A stretch of 33,483 nucleotides of DNA from Cytophagales bacterium (GCA_036735585.1 DAINOB010000001.1:1-33483), one strand, 5' to 3'. Numbered from the stretch's first letter, positions 2,658 through 24,840 are shown. Numbers and translations are program-made. Notes: generated from the letters alone by a model not told the origin.

Positions 2658-2737
2658 GTCAGCAAGGGTTTTAAACGTAAAGTTGAACAATTTTTATTTT
2701 CGACAAGTGATTAAGACTAGATCACTTAACTAGCATT

Positions 2738-4211: not shown

Positions 4212-4286
4212 GATTGTACGTGGGTTTGATATACCTAATGTCAAAGTTAGTAAAAACCGAAGTCTAAAGTCAAATTCTGGACCAAA

Positions 4287-4733: not shown

Positions 4734-4770
4734 TGTATGTGGAGTGTACTTCCTTTTATTTGTTACAAAT

Positions 4771-8884: not shown

Positions 8885-9949
8885 TTACATTCTTGGAGTA
8901 TCAAATCGCTTACGCTCCACTTCCATTTTTACTTTTTTAATGTAACGATAGGCGAATGAAATCTCAACTGCTCCTCTCCCATTGGTATAGTTGTTAAGAG
9001 ACGAAGTATTTAAATCGTAACTAAATGCAAACGTAAATTTATCTGTATTAAGGCCTGTAGCGAATATAAAGCTATCTTCAAGCCTGTGCCATATCCCTGC
9101 AATAATATCTACATTGGCTAATTTACTTTTTGAATCAAAGGATGCAGGAAATTTAGCAGATACACCAGGATTAATTTGTATCAAACCAGCTTGATAGACT
9201 ACTATGTAGTTGGGGGATATATATATGCCTAAATGACTTGGAATATCAATTCTTCCAAATGTTTTGATCACCGGTGGTAAATTTTGGGTTTGGCCTTCAA
9301 CCAATGACTCATTGGGGCTGTTGAGTTGATACCCAGACAAGCCGAGCGAAAGGTTCTTTCTTCTTCTTTTCTTTTTGCCAAACTGAGCGTTATAACTAAC
9401 ACCTACTCCTACATCTGGCATGATGCGAGTAGCCATTAGGTCTTCCTCTCCTGTAGCTAGAGATGGGTCTAATCCAGACCCTGGTCTATATTGATTGCCC
9501 CAACCTGCTCCTATGTTAGCCTGTTTTTGAATAAATCCAAGCATCATCCCAAAGCTAACGTACTTTTCGTTTTTACTCTTTAGCGGAAGGTTGTATGCAA
9601 AGCTTGCATTGGCTCCTGTATTCTTCACCAAGCCATTTGCTGCATTATCATTCACCAATGAAAGACCTATCCCGCCCCAATTTTCCATTTTTTTTGTCCT
9701 GCTTGTTAAAGGATGGATCAAGGAAACTTGTGTAGATGTATAAGCTTCTGAAATGCTGGTCCACTGACTCCTATGTACTCCACTTATAGACAAATGCTCT
9801 TCTGCTGCTGCAAACGTAGGGTTGAGATATAATCTGGAGGCAAAGAACTGAGAAAACTCAAAGTTCTGTGCTCTAAGTCCTTGTCCTGACAGCACGAAAA
9901 GGCATAGGAATAGTATTTGTCGGTATGATGCGTGACTGATGCTACTCAT
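8885..9949 (-). CDS. PorP/SprF family T9SS membrane protein (copy 1)
   Basis: Signal peptide followed by FSQFFASRLYLNPTFAA, the hallmark N-terminal motif of PorP/SprF beta-barrels. 354 aa. Its ATG overlaps the stop of the upstream cargo gene (ATGA at 9946-9949). Confidence 0.85.
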   Translation of the reverse strand: MSSISHASYRQILFLCLFVLSGQGLRAQNFEFSQFFASRLYLNPTFAAAEEHLSISGVHRSQWTSISEAYTSTQVSLIHPLTSRTKKMENWGGIGLSLVNDNAANGLVKNTGANASFAYNLPLKSKNEKYVSFGMMLGFIQKQANIGAGWGNQYRPGSGLDPSLATGEEDLMATRIMPDVGVGVSYNAQFGKKKRRRKNLSLGLSGYQLNSPNESLVEGQTQNLPPVIKTFGRIDIPSHLGIYISPNYIVVYQAGLIQINPGVSAKFPASFDSKSKLANVDIIAGIWHRLEDSFIFATGLNTDKFTFAFSYDLNTSSLNNYTNGRGAVEISFAYRYIKKVKMEVERKRFDTPRM

Positions 9950-11853
9950 CTAAAAAGTGTGGCGCTCCCCACAAGATTGATGGGTGTTCCATCAAGAAAC
10001 TTTCCACTTACAGTATAAGTATAAGCGCCTTGTGGCAATTCATTACCAGAGTTATTCATAGCTCCATTCCATCCTAACTCTTGCACTAATTGTAAGTTGC
10101 TGTTTTCAAAAACTACTTGCCCCCACCGGTTGTAGATCATCATCATAAATTCATCCTCAGAGATGTTTGTTCCAAAGATTCTCAGACTTGAATTATTGGA
10201 ATTGGTGGAGTTGGGTCTAAAAAACTTAGGTATAAAAATTACATTTTGGTCCTGCAAGTTTATGCTGTCTTGTGGTAGGGCAAAAGTAAAAACGGTGATG
10301 GTATCTTGTAAACTAGGGCATCCAGATGAATCTATAGCAATAACATAGTATTCTCTATTTCCTAAGGTAGCAACATTTCCAGTAAAGGTTAATACTGGTG
10401 TATTTACATCAACTACGTTGATATTCACAGGGCTCCATTCAAATGTATAAGGTTCACCTGCTCCACCACTTGCACTGGCAGTAAATTGCGCAGAATTAAA
10501 TACCCTTACACTATCAATCTTTGGAGACACTACTACACTAGGTATTGGTCTAGTTCCTAAAGTAACAGAATCGAATTTTTGGCAGTTTGCTTGATCTCTT
10601 ACTCTCACTATATAGACAAGTGGAGTAGTCAAACTACCAGGAGTAGCAATGGGGTTTGCAGAGGTAGAACTGCTCAACTTATCTAAACCTTGATTCCATA
10701 AAAAAGAATAAGGTGGAAGTCCGCCATTTACAACAGCGTTAAGTTGATAATCAGAGCCTTCACAAAGTATTGAATCTTGCTGTGGTATGGAAACTGACAA
10801 ACTATTGACAGTAACATTGGTATTACCAGTGGTACTGCAACCGACCGAATCAGTCACCGTTACTATGTAATTTATTGAGTTGATTGCAGTTAAGGTTACC
10901 GTTGGTCCTTGGGTAGCATTCAACCCTGTACTTGGGGTCCAATTATAGGTGAAAGGTGCCGCACCGCCAGTAGCAGTAGCTGATAAGTTGAAGACTGAAT
11001 CAGGACAAACTGCAGGATTCTGAGGCGTGATAGATACATTTATTGGAGGCGCCACATTTATTGTCACAAATGCCGTATCTGCATTGCACTGAAGTATCGA
11101 AGCATCCCTCACAATTACTCTATAGGTAGTAGTTGCAGAAGGTGTAGCTACAGGATTGGATATAGTAGGATTATTAAGTCCACCTGAAGGTGTCCAAGTA
11201 GTTTGATAAGGTGGTGTTCCAGAAACCACGGACGAATTTAACAACGCAAAAGTTCCTGAACATATAGAGGTATCATTTGATGCTGTGATTTGTGGACCTG
11301 CTGTAATAGAAACATTTACTGAATCGGTAAAACTGCATGATAAGGTTACTACTACCCTGGTTTGCCTCATCCAATAGATTCCTGGAGTCGTGACACGTAT
11401 AAAAGTATCCGTGGCTCCAGTATTCCAAAGCTGAGAACCCAGCCCCGTACCAGGAATAGTACCTAAAGCGGGTCTTCGAATAGTTGCAGTATCCCCGCTG
11501 CATAGTGCTATATCTGGTCCCAGAGAAAATCTAGGGGTAAGAAATTGCCTTACAAAGATGCTGTCACGGTAAGAAACATTATTTGAATCGGTGGCAATGA
11601 CAAAGTAATAGAAACCTAAGTTAGGAACTGAATCAAGTAACAATGTATCTGCGAAAGAAAGTGAAGTTGTATCGAATTCTATAAACCAACTATAATTATT
11701 AAATCCAGATGTTGCTCTCAATATCAATTTATCCCCTTCACAGAAAGTAGCGGAAGAACCATTCAAAATATTAAGCTGCGCCAAAACAGGAAAGTAAGAA
11801 ACCTGCAAGGTAAAACAAGTTACAAAAAGAAATTTTAGAAAGCCTACTTTCAT
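9946..11853 (-). CDS. T9SS type-B sorting-domain cell-surface protein with Ig-like modules
   Basis: Signal peptide MKVGFLKFLFVTCFTLQVSYFPVLAQ and four ~80 aa modules (C..L.a...GG.pPY.y.W.P..GL ... Y.V.V.D..GC). C-terminal ...IYNRWGQVVFE...GWNG...LPQGAYTYTV... gliding-motility-type sorting domain. The track start at 11874 is TTG; the ATG is at 11853. Confidence 0.85.
   Translation of the reverse strand: MKVGFLKFLFVTCFTLQVSYFPVLAQLNILNGSSATFCEGDKLILRATSGFNNYSWFIEFDTTSLSFADTLLLDSVPNLGFYYFVIATDSNNVSYRDSIFVRQFLTPRFSLGPDIALCSGDTATIRRPALGTIPGTGLGSQLWNTGATDTFIRVTTPGIYWMRQTRVVVTLSCSFTDSVNVSITAGPQITASNDTSICSGTFALLNSSVVSGTPPYQTTWTPSGGLNNPTISNPVATPSATTTYRVIVRDASILQCNADTAFVTINVAPPINVSITPQNPAVCPDSVFNLSATATGGAAPFTYNWTPSTGLNATQGPTVTLTAINSINYIVTVTDSVGCSTTGNTNVTVNSLSVSIPQQDSILCEGSDYQLNAVVNGGLPPYSFLWNQGLDKLSSSTSANPIATPGSLTTPLVYIVRVRDQANCQKFDSVTLGTRPIPSVVVSPKIDSVRVFNSAQFTASASGGAGEPYTFEWSPVNINVVDVNTPVLTFTGNVATLGNREYYVIAIDSSGCPSLQDTITVFTFALPQDSINLQDQNVIFIPKFFRPNSTNSNNSSLRIFGTNISEDEFMMMIYNRWGQVVFENSNLQLVQELGWNGAMNNSGNELPQGAYTYTVSGKFLDGTPINLVGSATLFR
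9949..10242 (-). other. Type-B (CHU_C/gliding-motility-associated) C-terminal sorting domain of the 642-aa protein
   Basis: VIFIPKFFRPN...IYNRWGQVVFENSN...GWNGAMNNSGNELPQGAYTYTVSGKFLDG...ATLFR. It matches the NRWG / GW(D/N)G / G.Y.Y pattern of TIGR04131-type domains. Confidence 0.75.
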
Positions 11854-11893
11854 AGAATAAGCAAAATTAGGCAATACACATACAAAAAGCTAA

Positions 11894-11927
11894 AATTTTA
11901 GGTGTTCGAGTATGAACACCTAAAATT
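11894..11927 (-). terminator. Strong hairpin (candidate bidirectional intrinsic terminator/attenuator) 8 nt after the giant-gene stop
   Basis: Perfect 14-bp stem AATTTTAGGTGTTC / GAACACCTAAAATT with the 6-nt loop GAGTAT. On the minus strand it is followed by TTAGCTTTTTG and preceded by an A-run. Confidence 0.6.
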
Positions 11928-11934
11928 GATTTTT

Positions 11935-14900
11935 TTATCTAATCAGTGTCACACTGCCTTGCTTCTTGAAGGGTCCTGCAAATTCACTTTCGATTCCTTT
12001 ATACGTAACAATGAAAGGATAAGTACCTGTAGGCATTTCTTCTCCTTTATAAGTGCCATCCCAGCCCTCCGTGATGTCTGTGGCATAGAAGATTATTTCA
12101 CCCCATCTGTTGAAAATGGTCAGTGAAAAATCACTGAAATATTCTCCAAACAACCTGAAGAAGTCATCCTTACCATCACCATTGGGAGTAAAGCCCGAGG
12201 GTGTAAAAATCCTAGGTGAGCATCTATCAAAGACTAGAATACTATCCGTAGCAGGGCAGTTGGCCTCATTGAAAACGGTGACCGTATAATAACCTGAATC
12301 CGTGGCATAGAAGGTAGATAGTGTATCTGTACTGTCAGCACCAAACCCAAACCATTCATACCGCGCAAAACCTGAAACATTCAAAGCAACACTGTCATCA
12401 TCTGCTTTACAGAATTTGATGCTTGCAGGTAATACCAATTGAGGTAAAGGACTAAAGATTAACGTGGCACTGTCTTCATCAAAGCATTGGTCAATAGCAA
12501 ATCTTACAGAGTATATTCCGGGTGTCGTAGCCCTGTAAATACTGTCGCGTTCACTTTCAATGGCAAGCCCTTCGGTAAACCAAGTATATACACCAGAAGA
12601 TAGATTTAAGCTATCATAGTTGATAGGTGTGCCATTAAGAACAACTGGTAGGCCTTGACAACCTGTAGTGTCATTGAGTACCACCTCAGGCCTGATCGTA
12701 GTAGACAATACTATGGTATCTCGTCCTATACATCCATAACTGTCTGTAATTAAGACTTGAAACACTTGGTTTACACTTGGGGTGTCATTGCCCAATGTAT
12801 CAAAGAAGAAGGTGGTATAGGCTAAGGTATCTCCCAAACTGGTCCATATATATTGAGCACCCGGGAATGCTGTGGTAGCAATCGTCACATCACTACCCAC
12901 ACAAACTGTCCTATCTGAGCCATTTGGCCGCGGAGGAATCACCACATTGGTGCTGGCATCTGTAAAGCACTGGTCAAAGAAATACAGTATCCTATGAATG
13001 CCGGGTTGTTCGAGTTGCAGTGTGCTGTTGTTGGCTCCTAATATGATAGAATCATTTCTAAACCATAAGAAGGTACCTGCCACTCCAGGCACGTTGGCTA
13101 CATTACTGTTGATGAGTAATGAGGTGTCAAAACAGAAGCTTGTGTCCATGTTAAATGTAGGCGGATTGATCCCAAACAATCGTATGGTGTCTGTTGTAAC
13201 ACATCCTCTTGAGTCTTGAGCAGTTACCACAAATCCCGTATCATTTGAAACGGTAACTACTACATTATGGCTGTTGGAAATAATCAGTCCGTTCAGGGTA
13301 CTCCATCTGTATTGATTGCCTGTTTCTCTGAATGAAGTCAACAGTACATTACTACCTCTACACACGGTCTTGTCCAACCCTGCATCTGCAAAGGGTGGTG
13401 GTGCTATCCCAACTACCATATCGCTGTTGGCTCCAGGACAAGCTCCAGTGGGGATAGAGGTAAGTGTAAACTCTATTCTCTGTAAAGTGAAATCCGAAGC
13501 TGATGGGAAGTAGAAAGGTGTCAGCTGTTGTGGACTTGGAGAGAACACTCCTGTACCATTGGTAGTCCATGAGCCTCCTATGGCGTTTTGTATACTTCCT
13601 TGCAGTTGGATAGATCCGTTTTGCACGCACAAGGAGCTTGGTCCTGTATTCACTACAGGAAGCCTTTGAAGCGTGTAGATTACGGAATCTGTCTTTGCTT
13701 TACACTTTCCGGGAGCAGAGGTAAGTCTAAAAATGATTGAATTTCTTAGCCTATCATCTAGGGATATGGCGTACGTAGGGGAAAGTACATCTTCCGATGG
13801 GGCAAACACTCCTGTCCCGTTTGTCGTCCATGAGGTATTCAATAGTTGATCTATCGTTCCGTTTAATTGTATTTGAAGTGCATCTTCGCATACTGCTAAA
13901 TCAGGTCCAGCTTCTACTTTAGGTGCTTCCACAAACCTTACGATCTTGTTGTCGCTTACGGACTGGCAAAGTCCATTTCCTGTAGTATTTGCGGTAAGTA
14001 CTACAGCTCCAGCAAATTTATCTGCCGCACTTGGCAAGTAAAAAGCATTAGGAGAAGTAGCCGTAGGCAAGATGATACCAGTACCTGTACTCAACCATTG
14101 TACACCATTGGCTCTAGCAAAAGTAGCACTGATGGGAATGGAATCTTGATCAGAACATATCTCTTCAGGTACCGTAATGCTGATTTCTGGTACACGTAAA
14201 ATTCTTAAAATCTTCGTATCACTTACTGGAGAGCAAGTTCCATTCCCATCGGAAGTTAAGGTAAGACCTACCTGCCCTGCTTGTTTGTCACTCGCAGAGG
14301 GCTGATAAACTGCATTAAGGGTAAAGGCATTGGGTACAAATGTTCCTGTGCCTGTAGTAGTCCACACACCTCCATTGGCAACAGTAACAAAGCCACTTAG
14401 CTGTATAAAATTTGCATCTGCACAAATGGTATCATTCAATCCCGCATCCACTGTAGGTGTAGGGGTAAACAATACTCTGATGCTATCTATTGTGCTGTTA
14501 CAAACATTGGTTGGTAGAGAGGCAAGTCGAATGAATATAGAGTCACTTGCAATATCAGCTGCACTTGGCTGATAAAACCCATTGAGGGAGGTATTGGAAG
14601 GAAGGAAAATACCTGTACCTGTAGACGACCAAGTGCCTCCAGGTGCATTCAATATCAATCCATTCAAGTTGATAAGCTGAACGTCTCTACAAATTTCTAT
14701 ATCAAATCCAGCATTTACGACCGCAGCAGGTTCTGTGTTGAAAGTAATGGTAGCAAAAGCAGCTGATGAATCGCAAGGAGCATTTCCTGTAGAAACTAAA
14801 TACACTGTAACAGCATTGGCCGCTAAATCTGAGGCAGTAGGAAAGTAACGAGGTGTCAGAATAGTATCGTTGTCGAAAGTCCCTGTACCTAGGGTTTTCC

Positions 14901-17900
14901 AGCGCACACTTGGTGTGTTTACTGAAGTGCCAGACAACTGGATAAAAGGCTCATTTCTACATACATCAGTCGGAGCTGATGCCGTTACCAGGGGCACTCG
15001 TCTAATGCGAACAACTGTACTATCGAATGCCGCCCTACAAGTGCCATTTCCAAGGGTAGTAAGTCTAAAGAATATGCTGTCACTAGCTCTATCCGCTACA
15101 GAAAGCGCATATATAGGATTCAATTGGAATGGATCTGTGGAGAAAGAACCTGAGCCTGTAGAACTCCATGACACTCCCTGAGCAACTGTGATAACCGAAC
15201 TGAGATTTACTGTTGTACTTGTCTCACAAATTACTTGAGCAGGACTGATAGTGGTGGTAACTGTTGGCGTCAAATTAATTCTAACAGTATCTGAAACCTG
15301 CCTACAAATTCCCGTCCCTGTTGTGGTGGCAATTAACTCTACAAATCCTAAGTTTCTTTCAGCTATTGTAGGTGTGTAAAAAATACTGAAGTTGTTTGGT
15401 CCATTCAGTGGTAGTGGCGTTACAGAACCTACTTTCCTCCAAATAGCACCTCCAGCTTGGGTAGCGGTGGCCTGAAGCAATAGGCTGTCTACATCCCTAC
15501 AAATGGTAATGTCAAACCCAGCAAAAATAGTGGGTGCAGGATTGATGAATAGGGTAAGCTGGTCTGATTGGCTGCTACATGCCGTAGGACTCGTCACTTG
15601 TATCGTAAGTACCACTAGTGAATCTTGAATATCCTGGGCCGAGGGCACATATATGGCATTAGCGGTGATATCATTTGGAATAAACGTACCTGTGCCGCTG
15701 GTAGACCAAGTCACTGCACTTGCATTGGCAATCACAGGATTGAGCTGCAACCCTGAACTGTCGGCACATATCGTCCGATTGGGACCTGCATTTACTGTAG
15801 GGCCAGGTAATATCCTTAGCAAAAGCGTGTCTATAACAGGTGGACATGCCCCTGAAGCCGGTGAAACTAAAGTTAACAGCACTTGTTGAGCTGCTATCTC
15901 CCCTGCGGTAGGTTGATACGTGGCATTTAATACATTCCTTGAAGGACTGAATGTGCCAAGTCCTCCCACCCAACTTCCGTTTGCACCTGAGCCATTCAGC
16001 AGGTATGGAAAATCATTGGTGCAAACTGTATCTATTGGGCCACCTGCATTGATTACCAGAGCCGTGGAAAACTGTATATTCAATGTATCAAATGCCGGGA
16101 AGCAAGTATTGTTCCCATTGGCTTGATACACAAGTGATACTAATCCAGCTGCAGTATCTGCTTGACTTGGGAAATAAAAACCACTTGCAGAAAGATTTGA
16201 TGGTTGGAATGTTCCAGAACCTAGTGTGGTCCAGAACCCATTAGGTGAATTGGTAGATTGTGCAAACAGTGGCAAGCTGTCCAAAGAAGCACAGACTTGG
16301 TAGTCCTGCCCTACATTCACTGTGGGACTTTGTGTAATAGCCAACACCATCCCATCAGATACATTGGCGCATATACCGTCTGTGACAGTGCGAATGGTGA
16401 AAAACAAGGTGTCCAATAATCTATCAGCTACAGAAGGTTGATAAAATATAGATGCCGTTGCCGTATCACTCAATATTCCTGAACCATTTGTAGTCCATTT
16501 TACTCTTAATGCGTTTGCGAATGTACCTGTGATATCTACCGATTCATCATCAGAGCACATTTGCTTATCAATGCCCGCATTAACTGTAGGTGGGGCTACT
16601 ATTCTTAGCGTCAGGCTGTCTTCTATAGGATTACATACAGTATTCAGTGTAGTTACGCTTCTTATTGTAACTACAGTATCCAATAGACCTGGTACGTAAA
16701 ACACTGTGTCACTAAGCGCATTTGGTAAAAATGATCCGGTACCTGTACTAGTCCATGACACCCCTCCTGCATGGGCATAGTTTGCTATTAAGCGAACTCC
16801 AGGTGCTGTCTTACAGATAGATGTGTCATTCCCAATATTTAGAGTAGGTAGTGGGTTGATTGTGATCAACATACTATCTATTCTTGGCTTACAGATTCCA
16901 GTGCCAGTAGTTTGTAAATACAGCTTTACCAAACCGTTATTACGATCCGCGACACTCGGGAAATAATTGGCATTTAGATCTGTAGCAAATGGAGTAAAGC
17001 CTCCTGTGCCTAAAGTAGACCATACTACACCCGATGCATTAGTAACAGTACCAGAAAGCGAAACGCTATTTTGACTTCGACAAATGGTCTGACTTGTTCC
17101 TGCATCTATTGTTGGGGCTGTTCTAAAATATAGATCATAGCTTCTTCTGGTAGTATCGCAAAGTCCGTTGCCAGTAGTGCTGAACGTAAACCTCACTTGA
17201 CCAGCAGCAATATCTAGATTTGAAGGAATATAACTTGTGTTGAACCCTGTATCACTAGGTGTGAAAATTCCTGTACCTGAGCTATTCCAAATGCCGCCTG
17301 TAGCTACTGTTACAACTGCGGATAGTGGAATGCTGGGCGTATCGCTACACACCAAAGTGTCTCCAACGAATTGAATATCGGGTTTTGGAGTGAGTGTGAT
17401 TATGATGGTATCTATCGGAGGAGGTACGCAAGGTCCATTACCAGTACTGGAGAGAAACAATCTTGCAAAGCCATTCAAGCGATCAACCGTGGTAAATACA
17501 TAATTAGGGTTGGCAACAAAACTGTTCGGAAAGAAACTTCCGTTGCTGGCACTACTCCAACTTACTCCTCCCGCATTTTGTACCGAGCCATTTAAGGAAG
17601 TACTTAATTTATCCTCGCATACATCATAGTCACCACCTGCATTGATGATTGGGGCGCGTATAATTCTGACCAATAAGGTGTCTCGTTTTGCTACGCATTG
17701 CCCTGTGCCTGTAGTAGTGGCAAAAACCAAAATACTGTCTCGTTGCCTGTCTGCAAAGGTGAGTTGATAGGTAGGCGTGGGACTGGTGTTAGAAGGGGAA
17801 AACGAACCAGTACCATTTGAACTCCACAAAACTCCTGTAGCATTGGTTGTCAATGCACTTAAAGGCAGTGTAGTTGTGGTTTCACAAATCTCTACATCTA

Positions 17901-20900
17901 AGCCAAGGCTCAATTCGGGCTCTGGGGTGAAGGTAACAATCAAGGAATTGGAGTCTGGATTGCAAATTCCATTGCCAGTTGTAGTTAGCCTCAAGGAAAC
18001 AAATTGAACTTGCTTATCCTGAGCACTAGGGATATATCTCGCATTCAAGGAAGTAGCATTGGGTACAAATATCCCTGTGCCTGTACTCAACCAAACTCCG
18101 CCTGTCGCATTAAATACCTGACCTAGCAATTGAACGGTATCACGATCTGCACATAAGGTCTGATTGGGGCCAGCAATGGCTCTTGGTCTTTTTGTTAATG
18201 TCATCAATACTGAATCTTGGGCTGGGGCACATGTCCCATTTCCCAATGTGGTAATAAATAAGCGCACACTTCCAAAGGCTGTATCTGCCTGTGAGGGGAA
18301 GTACCTAGAAGATGGTGTATTGGCGGTAGGTGAAAATATGCCCGATCCTGAGGTACTCCAGATTACTCCTTGGGCATTTGAAAAGGTTCCAAAGAGTTGA
18401 ATATTGTTTACATCTGAGCAAAATGACTGAGGAGAACCTGCACTTGTAGAAGGTGCATCTTGTAAGTCTATATTGATCGTATCTCTGTTGGGTTGGCAGC
18501 TTCCATTTCCCGTGGAGCTTAAAACTAAAACAACTCGCTGAGCTGTTCTCTCTGCTGGGGTTGGTAAATAGCCTGCATTTAATGTAGTAGCGTTTGGCGT
18601 GAACACTCCCCCGCCAAGGCTGGACCATAATCCTCCCGTGGCTAATGTCACAGCACCATTTAGTTGAATAGTATCTACTGTCTCACATACATCCTGGTCG
18701 GGGCCGGCATTGGCTACCACACTAGGATTGATAGTAACCCTTACAGAATCTCTTACTACGCCACAACCGTTTGCTGGAGGAACAGACAATACCAAATTGA
18801 CATTGCCATTTAATTTATCTGTAGCAGATAGAATGTATCGTCCTTGAGGGGTGTTTGCATTGGGGGTGAAGGCTCCTGTACCTGTAGTAGTCCAAACACT
18901 GAAAGGCGAATTTGTTACTGTTCCGTTAAGTTGAATCGTGTCTGTTTCAGCACACACCACTATGTCTGAACCGGCATTTATAACTGGGCCTTGAAGTATC
19001 GTGAAGAGTACCGTATCTGTAACCTGAATGCAATTAGGATTTGGGTTTGTAACCAATCTAAGTCTCACAAATCCATTCAAAACTTCTGCCGCAGATGGGG
19101 TATATCTTGCATTAAGTGTTGCCGAATTGGGGGTAAAGCTCCCGTTACCACCAAACCAAGTAGCCGCACTGCCTGATCCTGCCAATTGTATGGGAAAATC
19201 ACTGGTACATACCGTACGGTCTGGGCCAGCATTCACCACTGGATCTGCTGTAAACGTGATGACCATACTTGATGAATCAGCATTGCATAATCCATTTCCT
19301 GTAGATATAAGGGTAAGCACTACAAACCCATTTAGTCTATCTGTAGCACTAGGTAGGTAGTTGGCATTTAGCACATTGACATTAGGGCTGAATGTACCTG
19401 ATCCTGAGGAAACCCACCTGCCACCTGTGGCGCGTATCACTGAACCATTTAAAGTCACACTAGGCAATCCCCCACACACGGTTTGATTAGGACCTGCATT
19501 GGCTACAGGGCTTTGGGTGACTTGAATGGTGGCCGTAGACTGTACAGGATTACAATTTCCATTTAGTCTCGTCTCGGCTGTTATGGTAAAGCTACCTGCT
19601 AAAATTTCGCTCGCTGTAGGGATGTAAATTACATTTACAGAGTCTGAATTAGGAATAAAGCTACCTCCATTTCCGATCCATCGTACGCCTCCTGCTACAG
19701 TGAAGCTAGCACTCAGGTTTACTGCTGAATTGTCTTCGCATACAGCAGAAGGTGCTGAAATTGAAACGGTAGGAGCGTTAACAAAATTAATACGCACCGT
19801 GTCAAAGCTCGGATCACAAAATCCATTTCCTGTGGTTCTGAATCGTATGTCCACAAAACCCGCATTCAGCTCGTTCTGATTAGGAGTGTATGTTACATTC
19901 AAATTGTTTCTTCCAGGGGTAAATGTTCCACCACCGCCTACCCATCGGCCACCTCCTGCATTGGATACTGTACCTGAAAGGGATACAACTGCATTGTTTT
20001 TACACAAGGTCTGATCTGGTCCTGCATTTGAAACGGGGCCAGGCAATACACGGATTTGGATGGAATCTGATACTGGAAGACAATTGTTATTTAATGTGTC
20101 TGTGGTTAATGCTAATGTTAGTCCGCCTGCTGTAACTTCTGCTGGTGTAAGGGAATAAACAGTAATCAATGAATCCTGACTTGGATTGAACACTCCAGAG
20201 CCATTACTCCAAAAACCTCCACCCCCTCCTGATACTACTCCATTCAACTGTACGACTGGGTTATTGGTACAGACATCCACAATCGCAGGGCCTGCATTTA
20301 CAGAGGGTGGGTTTACAAAATTGATGGTCAATGAATCATTCAAGCCAGGGCATGTGACTGTATTTACTCTGAAAAATAATTTTACCGAACCATTTGTAAG
20401 CTCTTGTGCAGTAGGTAAATAGGTTACATTGAACTGATTGGGTGGTATCGGAGTAAATGTACCACCTCCGCCTGACCATAGTCTTGAAGCAGTAATTCCA
20501 CTCAAAGAAGAACCTGTAAGCGTAACTAAAGGATTGTTCCTACAGACACTTTGATCTGGACCAGCTTCCGCTCTTGGAGCTTGGCCTATGATGACTTGTA
20601 TACTGTCACGCGTAGGAGTGCAACCTGCGCCTGACGTATTTAAGTACAGGAAGATAACTGTTGAGGCAATATCGATGGGGCCTGGCTCATACGTTGCATT
20701 TAATGTGCTGGCATTGGGGAAAAATGTGCCATCGCCTAATGAAGACCAAAATCCAGTAGCCCCCATAGAGACACTTCCATTTAAATTAACCGTTGGATTG
20801 GTCTCACATACATTGACATTTGCCCCTGCATTGGCCACTGGAGATGGGGTAATGGCAAATTCCACGGTGTCACTGACTGCTGCGCAACCACTTATTCCTG

Positions 20901-23355
20901 TAACGGTATAAGCCAATCTAAATGTCCCATTGGCACTATCAGTACTAGTAATGTTGTATGTTGCATTTGGATCATTGGCATTTGGAGAAAATGTTCCTGA
21001 ACCTCCAGACCATATCCCTGGAAGACTAGGGCTTACAACAGCGCTGAGTGCAATGGTCTTTTCAAAATCACACACCAAGCGGTCTACTCCGGCATCTACA
21101 ATTGGCGGATCTATAAAGGTAATAGTTAGGGTATCTGATTCGGGTTGGCAAAAGCCTGAACCTATTGAGGTTAGAATTAAATTAACCTGCCCAAAAGCAA
21201 TCTCTGCAGCAGTTGGTACATAGATCGCATTTAAAGTGCTGTCGTTTGGTGTAAAGGAACCAGAGCCCCCTGACCAGCGACCCCCTGTGGCTACAGATGG
21301 CGGTACTCCTATTACATTGACCGAACCACTCAATTGAATTTCAGGATTGTTCTTGCAAACCTGGGTATCGCCTAAGGCCAATACAACTATAGGCTCAATA
21401 ATATTAATTAGCACGCTATCTATCGCAGGGACAACACAAGGCACTACTCCATTGGTAAAAAACTTTAAATACACACCACCTGTGTCTATCTCAGCTTGAC
21501 TTGGTATATAAATAGAATTTACAGCGGAACTATCTGGAAGGAAAATCCCCGTTCCTCCAGCCCAAAAAGAACCAGCGCCAACTCCTGAGCCTGATAAATT
21601 TACCGAAGGATTGTTGTAACAAACCGTAGATCCAGGTCCTGCATTGGAAGTAGGTGGAGGAGAAAAGTTGATTTGAATGCTGTCGGTCTGGGGAGGACAG
21701 CCTATAGAATCATTGGTGGAAGTAAGCCTGATGATAAGGGAACCATTGGGAACTACATCTCCAGGGCCAAAAATATAGGTACCGATAAGTGATGAATCGT
21801 TGGGTAAAAATGATCCAGACCCATTTGTAGTCCAGCGCCCTGTTACTGAGCCTATCGTTACAGAACCGTTTAGAGGTATCTGGCCGTCTGTTGCACAGAT
21901 TGAAGTATCATTGGGTATAGCAGGAGGATTGAAGAAGTTGGCATCTACTAATGTTATTGAATTAGGTATTGAGGCATTTGAGGATTGAATACTAGCAAAC
22001 CACCAAGTATTGATAGAACGCAAGTCACCCCAAAAAGTCCTTGGCGTGATTCCATCAGGGGCAATATTTCCGCTCCACTTGTGACAACCTGTAGGATCAG
22101 TACATCCAATAAAAGGATCTCTCGTACCTCCAGCAATCAAAGTATCATCCCAATACAATCGAGGTTGAGGACCAAGTGGCCTTACTAATTGTACTCTATA
22201 CCCATCCGGGTGATTCTCTACATCATAAAGAGGAAGGTGCGTAAGACCATTATAATAATCTACTGTGATAGGGATCACTGTTCCTGGAAGAACCAATTGC
22301 CCCAGACCATTTAAACTATTCCATGGAACGCAATTAAGCCCACTATCCACTTGAGTTGTGATTAATACATCGGCAGAATTTTCTTGATATTCAGGTATTC
22401 CATTAAGCTCAAGAATGATATCAACAGTACCAGCTTTATTTACAAATACATTTAGACAACGATTCTGGGGGTCACAACCTGTGATTGTGGGTGGCGCGGT
22501 GATGTCACCCAAAACCCCTGTAGGAAAGCAAGAAGAATCAGGATCATTCAGAAAAATAGGATATTCCGGAAAGGTAAAGTTTCCAGCCCTAGACCTTCTG
22601 TCATTGATTATGTTTCCTGTGTTGGTGCAGCCTCGAGAGTTGGCAGAAACAATAAACCCAAATGGCTGCATTCCTCCAAAATCCAAACGAGTAACTACCC
22701 CATCGGGTGCATACATAAACATATTGGCCCTATATCTATTGGTAAATGAACCAGTGGTTAGATCCCATGCTCTAGACCATAAGCGGCCTAGCCTAATCGT
22801 ATTTGTTGCGATTGTAGCAACAGTAACATCGAAAAGTTCAAATCGTCTATTTACTACTTGTACTGTATTGGCATTATTTGCATTAAATTCTATATAATAG
22901 TTTCCAGTTAGCGTTGGTGTATATTGTAATGCGTTGTAGCCCCCTGCTCCTACCACTGCTGCAGGTCCGGCAACCGCTTGCGCATAATTGTTAATGAGTC
23001 CAGGGCCCGGTGCTGTAGGGATTTGAACAGGTCCAAAAACAATATTGCCATTTGGATCCCTTAATCTTACAAAAGTGGGTTGTGTAATATTAGTGGTTCG
23101 TACTCCAAAGTAAATTCTCTCACCAGGATTGCAAATGTTGATATAAAGTCTCTGATTAGAGTCTGCGGAATAGGTCATAAACCTACGCTGTGGCTGTGTT
23201 GTAGGATCCCATATCTGCATAAAGCCTGCGTCCCCGGCAGCGGGTCTAAGTTCTCGTGTGCCTTCTGAATAGGACTGAAAGACAGAAAGGGTAAAAAAGC
23301 AATAGAGAAATATAAATCTCAACTTGCTTAGTAATTTACTCGGTTCGGTTTCCAT
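11935..23355 (-). CDS. Giant T9SS type-B cargo: repetitive cell-surface (adhesin-like) protein, ~3806 aa from the preferred start
   Basis: Uninterrupted 11.5-kb ORF. The preferred start is the ATG at 23355 (METEPSKLLSKLRFIFLYCFFTLSVFQSYS = signal peptide); the track start at 23502 adds 49 residues that do not look like a signal. Layout is head domain, 32 + 5 Ig-like modules, and a canonical type-B sorting domain at the C-terminus. Confidence 0.9.
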   Translation of the reverse strand: METEPSKLLSKLRFIFLYCFFTLSVFQSYSEGTRELRPAAGDAGFMQIWDPTTQPQRRFMTYSADSNQRLYINICNPGERIYFGVRTTNITQPTFVRLRDPNGNIVFGPVQIPTAPGPGLINNYAQAVAGPAAVVGAGGYNALQYTPTLTGNYYIEFNANNANTVQVVNRRFELFDVTVATIATNTIRLGRLWSRAWDLTTGSFTNRYRANMFMYAPDGVVTRLDFGGMQPFGFIVSANSRGCTNTGNIINDRRSRAGNFTFPEYPIFLNDPDSSCFPTGVLGDITAPPTITGCDPQNRCLNVFVNKAGTVDIILELNGIPEYQENSADVLITTQVDSGLNCVPWNSLNGLGQLVLPGTVIPITVDYYNGLTHLPLYDVENHPDGYRVQLVRPLGPQPRLYWDDTLIAGGTRDPFIGCTDPTGCHKWSGNIAPDGITPRTFWGDLRSINTWWFASIQSSNASIPNSITLVDANFFNPPAIPNDTSICATDGQIPLNGSVTIGSVTGRWTTNGSGSFLPNDSSLIGTYIFGPGDVVPNGSLIIRLTSTNDSIGCPPQTDSIQINFSPPPTSNAGPGSTVCYNNPSVNLSGSGVGAGSFWAGGTGIFLPDSSAVNSIYIPSQAEIDTGGVYLKFFTNGVVPCVVPAIDSVLINIIEPIVVLALGDTQVCKNNPEIQLSGSVNVIGVPPSVATGGRWSGGSGSFTPNDSTLNAIYVPTAAEIAFGQVNLILTSIGSGFCQPESDTLTITFIDPPIVDAGVDRLVCDFEKTIALSAVVSPSLPGIWSGGSGTFSPNANDPNATYNITSTDSANGTFRLAYTVTGISGCAAVSDTVEFAITPSPVANAGANVNVCETNPTVNLNGSVSMGATGFWSSLGDGTFFPNASTLNATYEPGPIDIASTVIFLYLNTSGAGCTPTRDSIQVIIGQAPRAEAGPDQSVCRNNPLVTLTGSSLSGITASRLWSGGGGTFTPIPPNQFNVTYLPTAQELTNGSVKLFFRVNTVTCPGLNDSLTINFVNPPSVNAGPAIVDVCTNNPVVQLNGVVSGGGGGFWSNGSGVFNPSQDSLITVYSLTPAEVTAGGLTLALTTDTLNNNCLPVSDSIQIRVLPGPVSNAGPDQTLCKNNAVVSLSGTVSNAGGGRWVGGGGTFTPGRNNLNVTYTPNQNELNAGFVDIRFRTTGNGFCDPSFDTVRINFVNAPTVSISAPSAVCEDNSAVNLSASFTVAGGVRWIGNGGSFIPNSDSVNVIYIPTASEILAGSFTITAETRLNGNCNPVQSTATIQVTQSPVANAGPNQTVCGGLPSVTLNGSVIRATGGRWVSSGSGTFSPNVNVLNANYLPSATDRLNGFVVLTLISTGNGLCNADSSSMVITFTADPVVNAGPDRTVCTSDFPIQLAGSGSAATWFGGNGSFTPNSATLNARYTPSAAEVLNGFVRLRLVTNPNPNCIQVTDTVLFTILQGPVINAGSDIVVCAETDTIQLNGTVTNSPFSVWTTTGTGAFTPNANTPQGRYILSATDKLNGNVNLVLSVPPANGCGVVRDSVRVTINPSVVANAGPDQDVCETVDTIQLNGAVTLATGGLWSSLGGGVFTPNATTLNAGYLPTPAERTAQRVVLVLSSTGNGSCQPNRDTINIDLQDAPSTSAGSPQSFCSDVNNIQLFGTFSNAQGVIWSTSGSGIFSPTANTPSSRYFPSQADTAFGSVRLFITTLGNGTCAPAQDSVLMTLTKRPRAIAGPNQTLCADRDTVQLLGQVFNATGGVWLSTGTGIFVPNATSLNARYIPSAQDKQVQFVSLRLTTTGNGICNPDSNSLIVTFTPEPELSLGLDVEICETTTTLPLSALTTNATGVLWSSNGTGSFSPSNTSPTPTYQLTFADRQRDSILVFATTTGTGQCVAKRDTLLVRIIRAPIINAGGDYDVCEDKLSTSLNGSVQNAGGVSWSSASNGSFFPNSFVANPNYVFTTVDRLNGFARLFLSSTGNGPCVPPPIDTIIITLTPKPDIQFVGDTLVCSDTPSIPLSAVVTVATGGIWNSSGTGIFTPSDTGFNTSYIPSNLDIAAGQVRFTFSTTGNGLCDTTRRSYDLYFRTAPTIDAGTSQTICRSQNSVSLSGTVTNASGVVWSTLGTGGFTPFATDLNANYFPSVADRNNGLVKLYLQTTGTGICKPRIDSMLITINPLPTLNIGNDTSICKTAPGVRLIANYAHAGGVSWTSTGTGSFLPNALSDTVFYVPGLLDTVVTIRSVTTLNTVCNPIEDSLTLRIVAPPTVNAGIDKQMCSDDESVDITGTFANALRVKWTTNGSGILSDTATASIFYQPSVADRLLDTLFFTIRTVTDGICANVSDGMVLAITQSPTVNVGQDYQVCASLDSLPLFAQSTNSPNGFWTTLGSGTFQPSNLSASGFYFPSQADTAAGLVSLVYQANGNNTCFPAFDTLNIQFSTALVINAGGPIDTVCTNDFPYLLNGSGANGSWVGGLGTFSPSRNVLNATYQPTAGEIAAQQVLLTLVSPASGACPPVIDTLLLRILPGPTVNAGPNRTICADSSGLQLNPVIANASAVTWSTSGTGTFIPNDITANAIYVPSAQDIQDSLVVLTIQVTSPTACSSQSDQLTLFINPAPTIFAGFDITICRDVDSLLLQATATQAGGAIWRKVGSVTPLPLNGPNNFSIFYTPTIAERNLGFVELIATTTGTGICRQVSDTVRINLTPTVTTTISPAQVICETSTTVNLSSVITVAQGVSWSSTGSGSFSTDPFQLNPIYALSVADRASDSIFFRLTTLGNGTCRAAFDSTVVRIRRVPLVTASAPTDVCRNEPFIQLSGTSVNTPSVRWKTLGTGTFDNDTILTPRYFPTASDLAANAVTVYLVSTGNAPCDSSAAFATITFNTEPAAVVNAGFDIEICRDVQLINLNGLILNAPGGTWSSTGTGIFLPSNTSLNGFYQPSAADIASDSIFIRLASLPTNVCNSTIDSIRVLFTPTPTVDAGLNDTICADANFIQLSGFVTVANGGVWTTTGTGTFVPNAFTLNAVYQPSASDKQAGQVGLTLTSDGNGTCSPVSDTKILRILRVPEISITVPEEICSDQDSIPISATFARANGVQWLSTGTGIILPTATSPNAFYLPSAADKFAGAVVLTANTTGNGLCQSVSDNKIVRFVEAPKVEAGPDLAVCEDALQIQLNGTIDQLLNTSWTTNGTGVFAPSEDVLSPTYAISLDDRLRNSIIFRLTSAPGKCKAKTDSVIYTLQRLPVVNTGPSSLCVQNGSIQLQGSIQNAIGGSWTTNGTGVFSPSPQQLTPFYFPSASDFTLQRIEFTLTSIPTGACPGANSDMVVGIAPPPFADAGLDKTVCRGSNVLLTSFRETGNQYRWSTLNGLIISNSHNVVVTVSNDTGFVVTAQDSRGCVTTDTIRLFGINPPTFNMDTSFCFDTSLLINSNVANVPGVAGTFLWFRNDSIILGANNSTLQLEQPGIHRILYFFDQCFTDASTNVVIPPRPNGSDRTVCVGSDVTIATTAFPGAQYIWTSLGDTLAYTTFFFDTLGNDTPSVNQVFQVLITDSYGCIGRDTIVLSTTIRPEVVLNDTTGCQGLPVVLNGTPINYDSLNLSSGVYTWFTEGLAIESERDSIYRATTPGIYSVRFAIDQCFDEDSATLIFSPLPQLVLPASIKFCKADDDSVALNVSGFARYEWFGFGADSTDTLSTFYATDSGYYTVTVFNEANCPATDSILVFDRCSPRIFTPSGFTPNGDGKDDFFRLFGEYFSDFSLTIFNRWGEIIFYATDITEGWDGTYKGEEMPTGTYPFIVTYKGIESEFAGPFKKQGSVTLIR
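11938..12210 (-). other. Type-B (CHU_C/gliding-motility-associated) C-terminal sorting domain of the giant protein
   Basis: IFTPSGFTPNGDGKDDFFRLFGEYFSDFSLTIFNRWGEIIFYATDITEGWDGTYKGEEMPTGTYPFIVTY...GSVTLIR. A textbook match to the PNGDG.ND / NRWG / GWDG / G.Y motif series. Confidence 0.85.
12211..13386 (-). repeat. Five class-2 Ig-like modules (~75-82 aa each) preceding the sorting domain
   Basis: Each unit has an early Cys, a Y.W or W.F aromatic pair and a late D..GC/DQC/NC motif (e.g. CRGSNVLL...YRWS...AQDSRGCVTTDTIRL). This class differs from the 32-copy class and resembles the modules of the adjacent 642-aa protein. Confidence 0.6.
13387..21915 (-). repeat. Array of 32 tandem, diverged ~88-aa (~265-bp) coding repeats
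   Basis: Manual segmentation of the translation gives 32 consecutive units. Consensus: NAGpDqtvC.....iqLnGsv.nA.Gg.WsttGtGtF.Pn...lnA.Y.PSaaD...G.v.L.LtttGNG.C.p..DsvtI.....P.v. There are two conserved Cys ~62 residues apart and one conserved Trp. 8529 nt / 32 = ~266 nt per unit. Confidence 0.85.
21916..23265 (-). other. Non-repetitive N-terminal head region (~450 aa) of the giant protein
   Basis: It starts after the predicted signal cleavage (SYS/EG). It has no internal periodicity, several Cys pairs (RGCTNTG, SSCFP, TGCDPQNRC, GCTDPTGC) and is Trp/Tyr/Arg-richer than the repeat array. I cannot name a family. Confidence 0.5.
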
Positions 23356-23766
23356 ACGGTCTGCAGTTAGTTTCAAGTTTACCTCTAAAAATAGTTTCTT
23401 AGAGATACTTTTATAAAACCCTAATACGCTTGTGAGTAAATTTTGGTTGGAACAGTTGGAAAGAACTCTTGTTTTAATCAAACTAAATGTTGTATTCTTC
23501 ATGTTTAGATATAGTCCCTACGATTACGAGCTTTGATTTCGGTTTAAAATGCTTTTGAGGATTTCCAATTTCAGAAACTCATTTATGATTTAGTTCTAGA
23601 TTCTCAATTTGCTACAAAAGGTAAACAATTTCTCCTGTCTCAAAATGCCCCACAAGGTACATATTTATCATGATATCAAAATCGAATGCTTAATAACCCA
23701 AATCGAATTTGAACCAATTTTGCATACCTTTACCCTTAATTCAGTATACATCATCGGCCTTATCTC

Positions 23767-24840
23767 TTGATCAAATTGAAACTAAACAAAAAAACTAATT
23801 CAAAAGGCATACTTGTTTCTATGTTGTTTCTTGCTCTAAGCATGGCACCATATAAGTGTGCACTAGCCCAAGATATTCAGTTCAGTCAGTTTTATACCGC
23901 TACTCTTTATGTAAATCCAGCTTTTGCAGGATCTATGCATCAGAGCAGGGCTATGTTTCATCAGCGTGTACAATGGCCACAGCTTGAGGCAAAATATATC
24001 ACTTCATTATTCTCTTACGACAACTTTATCGATAAGTATAATAGTGGAATAGGTATTATGGCTATTCAGGATTTTCAAGGTGCCAACAACATTAGTTCCT
24101 CCGAAGCACATATTTTATATGCCTATGAACTGAACCTAAGCCGTACCTTTAGTTTTAGAGCAGGGTTTCAAGGAGGAATTATGTCACGCCAAATCAATTA
24201 CAACAAGCTTTCTTTTCCAAGCCAATTCAATAACCAAGGATTCCAAGGTGGAGATATATCGGCCAATATTGGGGATGAACGTGTAAACTTTTTTGATGTT
24301 TCTACAGGTGGATTGCTTTACAGCGAGCGATTATGGGTGGGTGTAAGTGCACACCATATGAATGAGCCAAACCAAAGTTTTCTAGGTGGAGTTACTCGAT
24401 TGCCCGCACGTTTTGCCTTTATTGGTGGATACAAAATTTATTTGGACAATACTGCAAATACCTCACTCAAAAGAAGAGCTGACCATCGAGAAGTGTCTAT
24501 TACTCCTACCTTTCACTACAAATTTCAAGGCAAATCTGATCAGCTTGACATAGGCTTGTACGGAACCTACAATCAAATATTCGGGGGTGTTTGGTACAGA
24601 GGACTTCCTTTCAAAAGGATTGAGTCTTTTCTACCTAACAATGAGTCCGTTGTTTTCATAGCTGGTGTATTTTATAAGAGATTTAGATTTGGCTACAGCT
24701 ATGATGCTACGGTATCCAAACTCACAGAGGTGCGTACAGGGGGATCACATGAGATCAACTTAACCTACTTCCACAAACCCAAACCAGCGAAAAGGAAACT
24801 TAGAAAGGATATCCCCTGCCCTCCTGGAGCAGGCGAATAA
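23767..24840 (+). CDS. PorP/SprF family T9SS membrane protein (copy 2), divergent from the giant gene
   Basis: Signal peptide ending ALAQ followed by IQFSQFYTATLYVNPAFAGS (the PorP/SprF hallmark). 357 aa. 23767 is a TTG; the alternative ATG at 23821 would leave a short signal peptide. Confidence 0.85.
   Translation: MIKLKLNKKTNSKGILVSMLFLALSMAPYKCALAQDIQFSQFYTATLYVNPAFAGSMHQSRAMFHQRVQWPQLEAKYITSLFSYDNFIDKYNSGIGIMAIQDFQGANNISSSEAHILYAYELNLSRTFSFRAGFQGGIMSRQINYNKLSFPSQFNNQGFQGGDISANIGDERVNFFDVSTGGLLYSERLWVGVSAHHMNEPNQSFLGGVTRLPARFAFIGGYKIYLDNTANTSLKRRADHREVSITPTFHYKFQGKSDQLDIGLYGTYNQIFGGVWYRGLPFKRIESFLPNNESVVFIAGVFYKRFRFGYSYDATVSKLTEVRTGGSHEINLTYFHKPKPAKRKLRKDIPCPPGAGE

Follow-up and report, generated by a model that had tools for sequence, protein, structure and literature searches.

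A giant type IX secretion cargo protein of a Cytophaga-like bacterium with a stalk of 32 diverged Ig-like modules

Organisation of the locus

The window analysed in this work is a stretch of 33,483 nucleotides from a Cytophagales bacterium (GCA_036735585.1, DAINOB010000001.1:1-33483). It harbours a giant ORF, a smaller gene for a second type-B cargo protein and two PorP/SprF-family genes (Table 1). From the N- to the C-terminus, the giant protein consists of a head, 32 two-cysteine modules, five shorter two-cysteine units and a type-B type IX secretion system (T9SS) sorting domain. M50 was taken as the likely start, since the starts of the relatives are located 25-33 aa ahead of a conserved A/S-EGT(K/R)EL motif. 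The putative signal peptide has a conserved position after M50 (alignment of 20 relatives) and was modelled by AF2 as a helix at model residues 5-25. The ORF encodes a real protein of approximately 3,800 residues from a Cytophaga-like bacterium, predicted to be secreted to the cell surface; its exact sequence was absent from the protein collections searched.

Table 1. Features of the giant gene and its neighbours. Positions are counted from the first nucleotide of the window.
Feature	Position	Strand	Evidence or remark
Second PorP/SprF-family gene	8885..9949	-	Shares 4 bp with the 642-aa gene
Second type-B CTD protein, 642 aa, Ig_7-like units	9946..11874	-	CHU_C, E 7e-11
Terminator-like hairpin, 14-15 bp and T-rich tail	11894..11927	-	Directly past the stop codon of the giant ORF
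Giant ORF, 3855 aa from the first ATG	11935..23502	-	Uninterrupted over 11.6 kb
T9SS type-B C-terminal sorting domain (CHU_C / TIGR04131)	11938..12204	-	PF13585, TIGR04131
Five shorter two-Cys Ig-like units, 76-83 aa (aa 3372-3765)	12208..13389	-	Ig_7-related
Stalk, 32 tandem Ig-like two-Cys modules, 85-95 aa (aa 527-3371)	13390..21924	-	Cys periodicity, alignment, AF2, Foldseek
Module 23, second short marker, 85 aa	15796..16050	-	Closest paralogue of module 11 (47.6% identity)
Module 11, short marker, 85 aa	18982..19236	-	Short length conserved in relatives
Conserved head, all-beta, no curated family (aa 80-526)	21925..23265	-	Alignment and AF2
Probable Sec signal peptide (aa 50-79), METEPSKLLSKLRFIFLYCFFTLSVFQSYS	23266..23355	-	Hydrophobic stretch, then conserved EGT motif
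Likely true start, M50	23355	-	Gives 3806 aa
PorP/SprF-family gene, divergent upstream of the giant	23767..24840	+	PF11751, E 1.7e-69; TIGR03519, E 4.1e-76

The sorting domain scored above the curated cutoffs of PF13585 (E 1.2e-16, aa 3767-3838; 61 bits, cutoff 27) and TIGR04131 (E 2.7e-15, aa 3768-3845; 56.3 bits, cutoff 35). These matches, together with the adjoining PorP/SprF genes, agree with an earlier sequence-only reading of this DNA, which had considered the protein as T9SS type-B cargo. Orthologues of the upstream PorP/SprF gene (45-53% identity; 79% in L051, a locus of the closest relative) adjoin head-bearing genes in 24 related loci, and to judge from the sequences its product is likely the cognate outer-membrane anchor of the giant. 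According to PMC9143113, PorP-like proteins serve as the anchors of type-B cargo, and type-A CTD proteins are covalently attached to LPS.

The 642-aa protein showed weak matches to Ig_7 and SprB (PF13573), and it was 27% identical over 477 aa to the C-terminal 484 aa of the giant, so that it resembles a stalk-less copy of this part. The product of the second PorP/SprF gene is probably its anchor; the two PorP genes are only 25% identical to each other. No PorE/OmpA-like gene was found among the window ORFs scanned.

The stalk module and the head

Modules were delimited by cutting 9 residues ahead of each first cysteine. Cysteine positions were strictly periodic along the array, and C10, W31, Y50 and C76 were invariant in the alignment of the 32 modules, while L18, G35, G37, F39 and P41 were kept in at least 90% of them. 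The 32 tandem two-cysteine modules with a single tryptophan, described from the sequence beforehand, were recovered, as was the count of 37 units in all (32 modules plus the five shorter C-terminal units). The module size estimated earlier (84-93 aa) was roughly right, the measured range being 85-95 aa; the estimated identity of 30-45% includes the mean protein identity of module pairs (32.5%) near its lower end, but individual pairs ranged from 18 to 54%. Codon-aligned DNA identity between modules was 44% on average (maximum 57%) and Tandem Repeats Finder did not find a DNA-level array in the giant gene. This divergence in both protein and DNA indicates that the array is not an assembly stutter. 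The array is rich in Ser, Thr, Asn and Gly; the scarcity of charged residues noticed earlier was borne out, with 10.3% charged residues in all, Lys at 0.9%, Glu at 1.5% and His absent.

Searches of the whole protein against Pfam and NCBIfam (E<=1) gave no match for the module, and CHU_C was the sole Pfam family matched. Single modules compared with the curated models at E<=10 yielded noise only (four unrelated families, E>=0.1), and a module profile found no chain among the PDB sequences at E<=10. The Pfam models for SprB (PF13573), PKD, HYR, cadherin and Big did not match the giant. Hence, as the sequence-only reading had anticipated, the module belongs to a class without a curated name and is not a SprB repeat, PKD, HYR or cadherin domain; in the HMMER-type search that it had proposed, TIGR04131 was matched and no curated repeat family claimed the module. 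Although nameless, the module is widespread: its profile matched 7,485 representative protein clusters, it is very common in Bacteroidota, and arrays reach 67 copies.

The fold was predicted by AF2 for modules 13-14, which were modelled as an Ig-like tandem (pLDDT 97.4), in line with the beta-sandwich guessed earlier. The top Foldseek match of this pair was the base of GhpA (9fly_A; E 2e-7, 18% identity, TMq 0.48), closely followed by cadherins and titin tandems. Cadherin-23, protocadherin-15 and the titin Ig segments share with the stalk a tandem beta-sandwich geometry and diverged repeats of conserved number and order; however, these are animal proteins without sequence relation to the module, and Pfam indicated no cadherin Ca2+-linker motifs in the giant.

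The five C-terminal units link the module to Ig_7. Unit 33 matched PF19081 (E 1.2e-4) with 22.7 bits, under the gathering score of 27.3 bits, and hhalign aligned the C-terminal units with the 89-aa module (probability 65%, E 6e-5), while the 89-aa modules themselves did not match Ig_7 at all. The module and Ig_7 both have a two-cysteine Ig-like skeleton (C ... W ... C-x-x-D) and are found beside a type-B CTD, but the 89-aa module is approximately 10 residues longer, owing to a G-x-G-x-F-x-P ... Y-x-P-S-x-x-D segment and a short helix that Ig_7 lacks. These similarities indicate that the module is not isolated, being distantly related to the CHU_C-associated Ig-like domain, Ig_7.

The array contained 49 D[ST][AILVMT] sequons, compared to 13 ± 3.5 in shuffled sequences, and in 23 of the 32 modules one was located at the same site after the second cysteine. 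This D-S/T-hydrophobic O-glycosylation motif is cited in PMC11611037, and in GhpA glycans and disulfides are reported in all of the Ig-like domains (10.1101/2024.01.29.577165). The stalk is probably stabilised by one predicted disulfide per module and probably carries O-glycans at the recurrent site. The D-S/T-x motif is in or beside the last strand, and its conservation may be structural instead of serving glycosylation.

The head showed 52 invariant columns among 20 relatives and was modelled with a pLDDT of 86.7 and a pTM of 0.84. Neither Pfam nor the PDB sequences gave a match, no binding or catalytic family was recognised, and no global fold match to the model was found in the PDB or BFVD. 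Sequence conservation was higher in the head than in the stalk. Other Bacteroidota proteins, of 585-900 aa, carry the head joined directly to a CTD of type A or type B, with the stalk absent or short. Being the most conserved part and found independently of the stalk, the head is considered the working part of the protein. Because the anchor is C-terminal, the head would form the distal end, and from this position and by analogy with precedents it is tentatively taken as a binding module, the most probable role.

Module number and register among relatives

The head-bearing relatives in Cytophagaceae had 32 or 38 modules, or only 1-6; their carriers are Cytophaga and Sporocytophaga relatives, with several paralogues per genome. 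Exactly 32 modules were present in 17 of the 24 complete representative relatives and 38 in three of them, and the genome loci showed the same pattern. The copy number is supported independently by the closest relative, of which two further assemblies (P0032 and the L051 locus) both showed 32 modules with a near-identical period profile.

The register of the array was also conserved. Short modules hold positions 11 and 23; the one at position 11 is short in nearly all of the 32-module relatives and also in the 38-module relatives, in which the second marker is at 26. Module 11 was the best same-position match in 8 of 15 distant relatives, and over all comparisons the module at the same position was the best match 66 times out of 480 (15 expected by chance). 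Module number and order thus stayed at 32 (38 in the sister class) while the sequences diverged to approximately 35% identity. The count of 32 and the two marker positions persisted even where head identity between relatives has dropped to 38-50%, which supports the view proposed from the sequence that the array is old and maintained and not a recent duplication. Count and order are conserved, and fibril length appears to be under selection. Speculatively, the markers at 11 and 23, or at 11 and 26, might act as hinges or keep the protomers of a multimer in lateral register.

A proposed surface fibril and its alternatives

The ORF product belongs to the known giant type IX secretion adhesins, with a module number that is unusually fixed across distant relatives. 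Our main reading, to which we give a probability of roughly 0.7, is that the giant is a PorP-anchored surface fibril of fixed length with a distal binding head in Cytophagaceae. The protein would be bound on the surface by the cognate PorP/SprF-like barrel encoded divergently upstream. The 32 Ig-like modules and five Ig_7-like units would form the stalk, which would place the head approximately 100-150 nm from the outer membrane.

A mobile gliding adhesin of the SprB type is conceivable, but we consider it doubtful. SprB of Flavobacterium johnsoniae with its partner SprF resembles the giant in being a giant repetitive type-B CTD cargo with an adjoining PorP-like gene and no adjoining PorE-like gene; the window ORFs scanned included no PorE/OmpA-like gene, which fits the postulate that PorP is the sole anchor of mobile cargo (PMC9143113). 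Moreover, the Cytophaga and Sporocytophaga relatives that carry the giant glide, and giant type-B 'sprB homologues' are reportedly present in C. hutchinsonii in several redundant copies (PMC11611037). However, the giant gave no PF13573 match at E<=1 (the weak match to this model came from the 642-aa protein next to it), its head and module families differ from those of SprB, and the PorP-like gene is downstream in the sprB locus and divergent upstream here. The head is also present on type-A CTD proteins, indicating that it is not specific to a moving adhesin, and the deletion of the sprB homologue chu_2225 in C. hutchinsonii left gliding intact (unpublished data cited in PMC11611037). A multimeric grappling hook such as GhpA, in which a parallel bundle of protomers forms a rigid hollow rod of uniform length whose heads catch cells or particles, seems unlikely. 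GhpA (Aureispira, cryoEM 9fly) follows a common plan with the giant (giant T9SS substrate, distal N-terminal device, long run of slightly varying Ig-like domains, C-terminal sorting domain and PorP homologue), and its hooks are reported to be uniform in length, with disulfides and O-glycans in every Ig domain (10.1101/2024.01.29.577165). It is the top fold match of the module pair, and a fixed number with register-specific markers is what the lateral packing of a bundle needs. The tandem Ig-like stem fold is common to both, that of the giant being known from prediction. Nevertheless, sequence similarity between GhpA and the module was undetectable in the PDB profile search (E<=10), and the fold score hardly separates GhpA from cadherins and titin. 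GhpA is a heptamer with 52 repeats and a 1,400-aa hook, compared to 32+5 units and a head of approximately 450 aa here, and it has PorP and PorE homologues (ghpB, ghpC) downstream, while no equivalent of the PorE-like ghpC was found near the giant among the window ORFs scanned.

We also regard as improbable a passive coat or spacer, that is, a glycosylated brush shaping the envelope whose head has no specific ligand. The low charge, the Ser/Thr/Asn/Gly-rich composition, the density of O-glycosylation sequons and the several paralogues per genome would suit a coat. By contrast, a head that is the most conserved part and occurs without the stalk points to a specific activity, and a coat does not need an exact module count. 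An assembly artefact or a decaying pseudogene has a negligible probability and was refuted for practical purposes by the intact ORF, by the divergence of the repeats and by the independent assemblies of relatives with the same 32 modules and period profile. The anchored fibril with a distal binding head remains our preferred reading. Going further, the head-bearing family of Cytophagaceae could tentatively be regarded as a class of length-quantised T9SS surface devices not described so far. The stalk would then be a structured ruler, more than a simple spacer, and would present an effector head of a new type at a set distance from the cell.

Giant type-B T9SS cargo proteins such as SprB and GhpA act in gliding, adhesion and predation in Bacteroidota, and to our knowledge GhpA is the only one of them with a solved structure. 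The 89-aa two-cysteine module is a widespread domain family without a Pfam or NCBIfam model, and because this model is missing, thousands of proteins are annotated just as 'gliding motility-associated C-terminal domain' or 'hypothetical'. The head is displayed at widely differing distances from the cell: it may adjoin the CTD directly or sit on top of a stalk of 32 or 38 modules. The stalk offers a clear bacterial case in which repeats diverged to approximately 35% identity while their number and order stayed fixed, which suggests that fibril length is under selection. Both cellulose degradation and gliding require cell contact in Cytophaga and its relatives; we know of no identified adhesins in these bacteria, and the head-bearing family is a concrete candidate. 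If these proteins are indeed length-quantised devices, they would provide a bacterial system for how filament length is set solely by a genetically fixed number of diverged domains.

The giant open reading frame and its module array

The giant, a T9SS type-B cargo protein, is encoded by one minus-strand ORF. A hydrophobic signal-like stretch follows its M50 (window 23355) and precedes the motif EGT(R/K)EL, which lies 25-33 aa downstream of the start in all relatives aligned. Since the relatives align from M50, the 147 nt ahead of it are likely a 5' leader, and M50 is probably the true start rather than the first ATG. The giant contains 85 strictly periodic cysteines. Charged residues are scarce in the array, as the sequence-only reading had noted (10.3%; Lys 0.9%, Glu 1.5%, no His), while Thr, Ser, Gly, Asn and Pro are abundant. 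The GC content of the gene was 0.42-0.46 (window 12000..23000) vs. 0.36-0.41 in the flanks. Horizontal transfer was considered for this reason and rejected: the family is native to Cytophagaceae, and the Gly/Ala/Thr/Pro-rich composition is the simplest explanation of the higher GC. A plasmid search and an Rfam scan gave no match, and the protein collections searched contained no exact copy of the giant, whether read from the first ATG or from M50.

Features of the giant and its neighbourhood
Feature	Coordinates	Strand or position	Remarks
Giant ORF	11935..23502	-	3855 aa from first ATG
Likely 5' leader	23356..23502	-	relatives align from M50 (23355)
Module 11, short subtype	18982..19236	-	position kept in distant 32-module relatives
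Module 23, short subtype	15796..16050	-	position kept in distant 32-module relatives; 26th in 38-module class
PorP/SprF-family gene	23767..24840	divergent from giant, upstream	family-model matches
Hairpin, 14-15 bp, T-rich tails on both strands	11894..11927	past the giant's stop codon, ahead of the next gene	perfect-looking palindrome
642-aa type-B CTD protein of Ig_7-like units	9946..11874	-	downstream of giant
Second PorP/SprF gene	8885..9949	-	overlaps the 642-aa protein gene by 4 bp

Unit boundaries were set nine residues ahead of each first Cys. This delimited an unbroken run of 32 units, each 85-95 aa long, over aa 527-3371, followed by five shorter units (76-83 aa, at aa 3372-3765), making a total of 37. 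The earlier description of one ORF with 32 tandem two-cysteine modules was therefore correct; the unit size given then was 84-93 aa. The invariant Cys pair and the Trp noted earlier were found when the 32 units were aligned (alignment A1): C10, W31, Y50 and C76 are invariant, L18, G35, G37, F39 and P41 are at least 90% conserved and one further position is always Asp or Glu. Pairwise protein identity between units averaged 32.5%, independent of the distance between them; the units are diverged as estimated, over a range (18-54%) wider than the 30-45% proposed. Codon-aligned DNA identity had a mean of 44% (maximum 57%), and Tandem Repeats Finder detected no DNA-level array in the giant. Moreover, two independent assemblies of the closest relative (protein P0032 and locus L051) likewise contain 32 units, whose lengths follow almost the profile seen in the giant. 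Collapse or stutter of the array in assembly is therefore excluded; the sequence-only reading had argued against a stutter.

Identity, fold and abundance of the module

Compared with Pfam and NCBIfam, the whole giant matched only the type-B T9SS sorting domain, at its C-terminus (PF13585 CHU_C, 61 bits; TIGR04131, 56.3 bits; each over its cutoff), confirming its assignment as type-B cargo. Searched alone against Pfam (E<=10), the 32 modules gave merely four unrelated single matches (E>=0.1), and the module profile had no match among PDB sequences (E<=10), in line with the initial impression of a class without a recognised name. Shorter than the 89-aa module, the five C-terminal units make up a separate subclass. 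One of them matched Pfam Ig_7 ('Ig-like domain CHU_C associated'; E 1.2e-4, under the gathering score), and profile-profile comparison connected the module with the C-terminal units (probability 65%, E 6e-5). These two links place the module as an expanded form distantly related to the Ig_7 group and in no curated family.

AlphaFold2 was run on modules 13-14 with an alignment of 31 overlapping two-module windows. The model (mean pLDDT 97.4, pTM 0.81) bore out the beta-sandwich proposed earlier, each module having about seven strands and, where the P-S-x-x-D segment lies, a single short helix. In Foldseek against PDB, the module pair matched best the base of GhpA, the grappling-hook protein of Aureispira and a known giant T9SS surface protein, as solved by cryoEM (9fly_A, E 2e-7, 18% identity), followed by many cadherin EC tandems and titin Ig tandems (E ~3e-7 to 1e-5). 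The predicted pair is thus a generic Ig-like tandem, GhpA being the nearest solved example by a small margin only.

A word-indexed homologue search with the module profile returned 6 short fragments only, and an exhaustive search of 1.84 billion representative proteins was used for the counts. It yielded 7,485 proteins at E<=1e-3 and 1,961 at E<=1e-30, the longest array comprising 67 modules in a 6,625-aa protein. Source names were generic ('gliding motility-associated C-terminal domain-containing protein', 'PKD domain-containing protein', 'beta strand repeat-containing protein', 'hypothetical'), and organism labels, where given, were mostly Bacteroidota. Judged by these profile matches, the module is noteworthy as an abundant but uncurated Ig-like unit.

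Module number and register among relatives

Relatives were sampled as the 150 best module-bearing representatives with mutual identity <50%. The giant's head (aa 80-526) was present in 25 of these 150. Exactly 32 modules were counted in 17 of the 24 complete head-bearing representatives; two of the 24 scored 33, the first C-terminal unit also passing, three had 38 modules and one had 30. Module-bearing proteins without this head had 13 to 67 modules. A genome scan (one genome per GTDB species) found 282 head relatives, and the best 80 of the 282 loci were kept. Among these best 80, most were labelled Cytophagaceae/Cytophagales, including Sporocytophaga MAGs and Cytophaga aurantiaca DSM 3654, and the closest relative (78% identical) came from a pond Cytophagaceae MAG; several genomes hold more than one head-bearing paralogue. 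In the same 80 loci, the complete arrays had 32 modules in 14 and '33' in 5, at least 38 in eight and at least 37 in one (all nine extending past the fetched stretch), and only 1-6 in about ten.

The spacing between successive first cysteines revealed short modules (85 aa) at positions 11 and 23 of nearly all 32-module proteins, and at positions 11 and 26 in the 38-module class. When the giant was compared with 15 distant relatives, the same-position module came out best 66 times in 480 comparisons (15 expected by chance), and same-position identity exceeded off-position identity at 32 of 32 positions. Module number and order have been kept since before divergence to about 35% module identity, and the count of 32, the markers at 11 and 23 and the same-position matches all support the earlier view of an old, maintained array. 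This strictly conserved number with its marker positions is the second noteworthy feature of the giant.

In the giant itself, modules 11 and 23 are mutually closest paralogues (47.6% identity). They represent a specialised short subtype, sharing C-T-x-D-F-P and W-x-G-G-x-G. Their pairing prompted consideration of a 12-module super-repeat, which was rejected: mean identity at distance 12 was 0.34, no higher than at other distances. The 38-module proteins (loci L003, L021, L035, L037, L042-L044 and L073) form a sister class with three added modules between the markers and three after the second marker, and share genomes with 32-module and 1-6-module paralogues (e.g. MAG JAEYZG).

Head, gene neighbourhood and proposed fibril

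The head has 52 invariant columns among 20 relatives (39-76% identical to the giant's head), an identity exceeding that of same-position modules in distant relatives (30-41%). A Pfam scan of the giant and the 20 heads gave no match to the head, nor did its profile match PDB sequences; like the module, it is without a curated family. Its AlphaFold2 model is all-beta (pLDDT 86.7, pTM 0.84). Foldseek against PDB and BFVD found no global match and only local beta-sandwich likeness (GH2 N-terminal domains, Tk-SP jelly roll; TM <=0.18), so no function is assignable to it. A profile search located the same head in 585-900-aa proteins, joined directly or via PKD domains to a C-terminal sorting domain (CTD) of type B (PF13585) or type A (PF18962). 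Given these fusions, the head is an autonomous cargo module and the stalk an optional spacer.

Orthologues of the upstream PorP/SprF (outer-membrane anchor family) gene adjoin the gene for the head in 24 related loci, where they lie either upstream in divergent orientation or immediately downstream (45-53% identity, 79% in L051). Cargo and anchor are known together from PG1035 with PorP and SprB with SprF (PMC9143113). The 642-aa protein shares 27% identity with the last 484 aa of the giant and, with the second PorP/SprF (only 25% identical to the upstream one), forms a second cargo-anchor pair, giving two such pairs in the window. A single operon of the giant and the downstream genes was considered and rejected, as the giant's stop codon is followed by a strong hairpin of terminator type with a T-rich tail; the giant is thus probably transcribed on its own. 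This hairpin looks like a bidirectional terminator.

The remaining genes of the window are housekeeping (amidohydrolase, AMP nucleosidase, glycosyltransferase, beta-lactamase-fold protein and others). A 530-aa protein (1098..2690, -) has all three domains (PF03321, PF23571, PF23572) of the GH3 family, best known from plant auxin-conjugating enzymes and encoded here by a Cytophagaceae genome. A stand-alone 153-aa protein (27678..28139, +) matches HSDR_N_2, a domain from the N-terminus of R subunits in type I restriction systems, with no further restriction genes nearby. Long ORFs overlap on opposite strands at 3795..4244(-)/3868..4290(+) and 4287..4820(-)/4744..5280(+); the NUDIX ORF (4744..5280, +) is the only one of the four with a family match, and the gene calls at 3795..5280 are therefore ambiguous.

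The rise per domain in Ig-like tandems is typically 3.5-4.5 nm, and the 37 domains of the giant would form a fibril of ~130-165 nm fully extended, shorter if zigzag (working figure 100-150 nm). The two invariant cysteines suggest one disulfide per module, intra- or inter-module. GhpA has its C-terminus at the outer-membrane base and its N-terminal device distal (10.1101/2024.01.29.577165); by analogy, the giant's head would be the distal end of the fibril. The motif D-(S/T)-(A/I/L/V/M/T), a site of O-glycosylation in Bacteroidota (cited in PMC11611037), occurs 49 times in the array vs. 13 ± 3.5 in shuffles, and at the same site, 4-6 residues past the second Cys, in 23 of 32 modules. This pattern would fit a single glycan on each module, as GhpA has, although the motif could also be structural. 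No PorE/OmpA-like gene was found in the window. If the postulate of PMC9143113 is followed, this speaks for a mobile fibril of the SprB kind; that type-A CTD proteins also carry this head argues that the head need not move.

In kind, the giant ranks with SprB and GhpA among the very large surface filaments exported as type-B T9SS cargo. It fits neither of the two: it lacks the SprB repeats that characterise SprB, it shares the Ig-like stem fold of GhpA with no detectable sequence homology, it is without the PorE partner that GhpA has, and its head differs from both. For C. hutchinsonii, a review (PMC11611037) mentions chu_2225 and its paralogues, several giant type-B 'sprB homologues' that are redundant, gliding being reportedly unaffected when one of them is deleted; they may be related to the giant. 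Module and head of the giant both stand outside curated families, and its module number is strictly conserved along with the marker positions.
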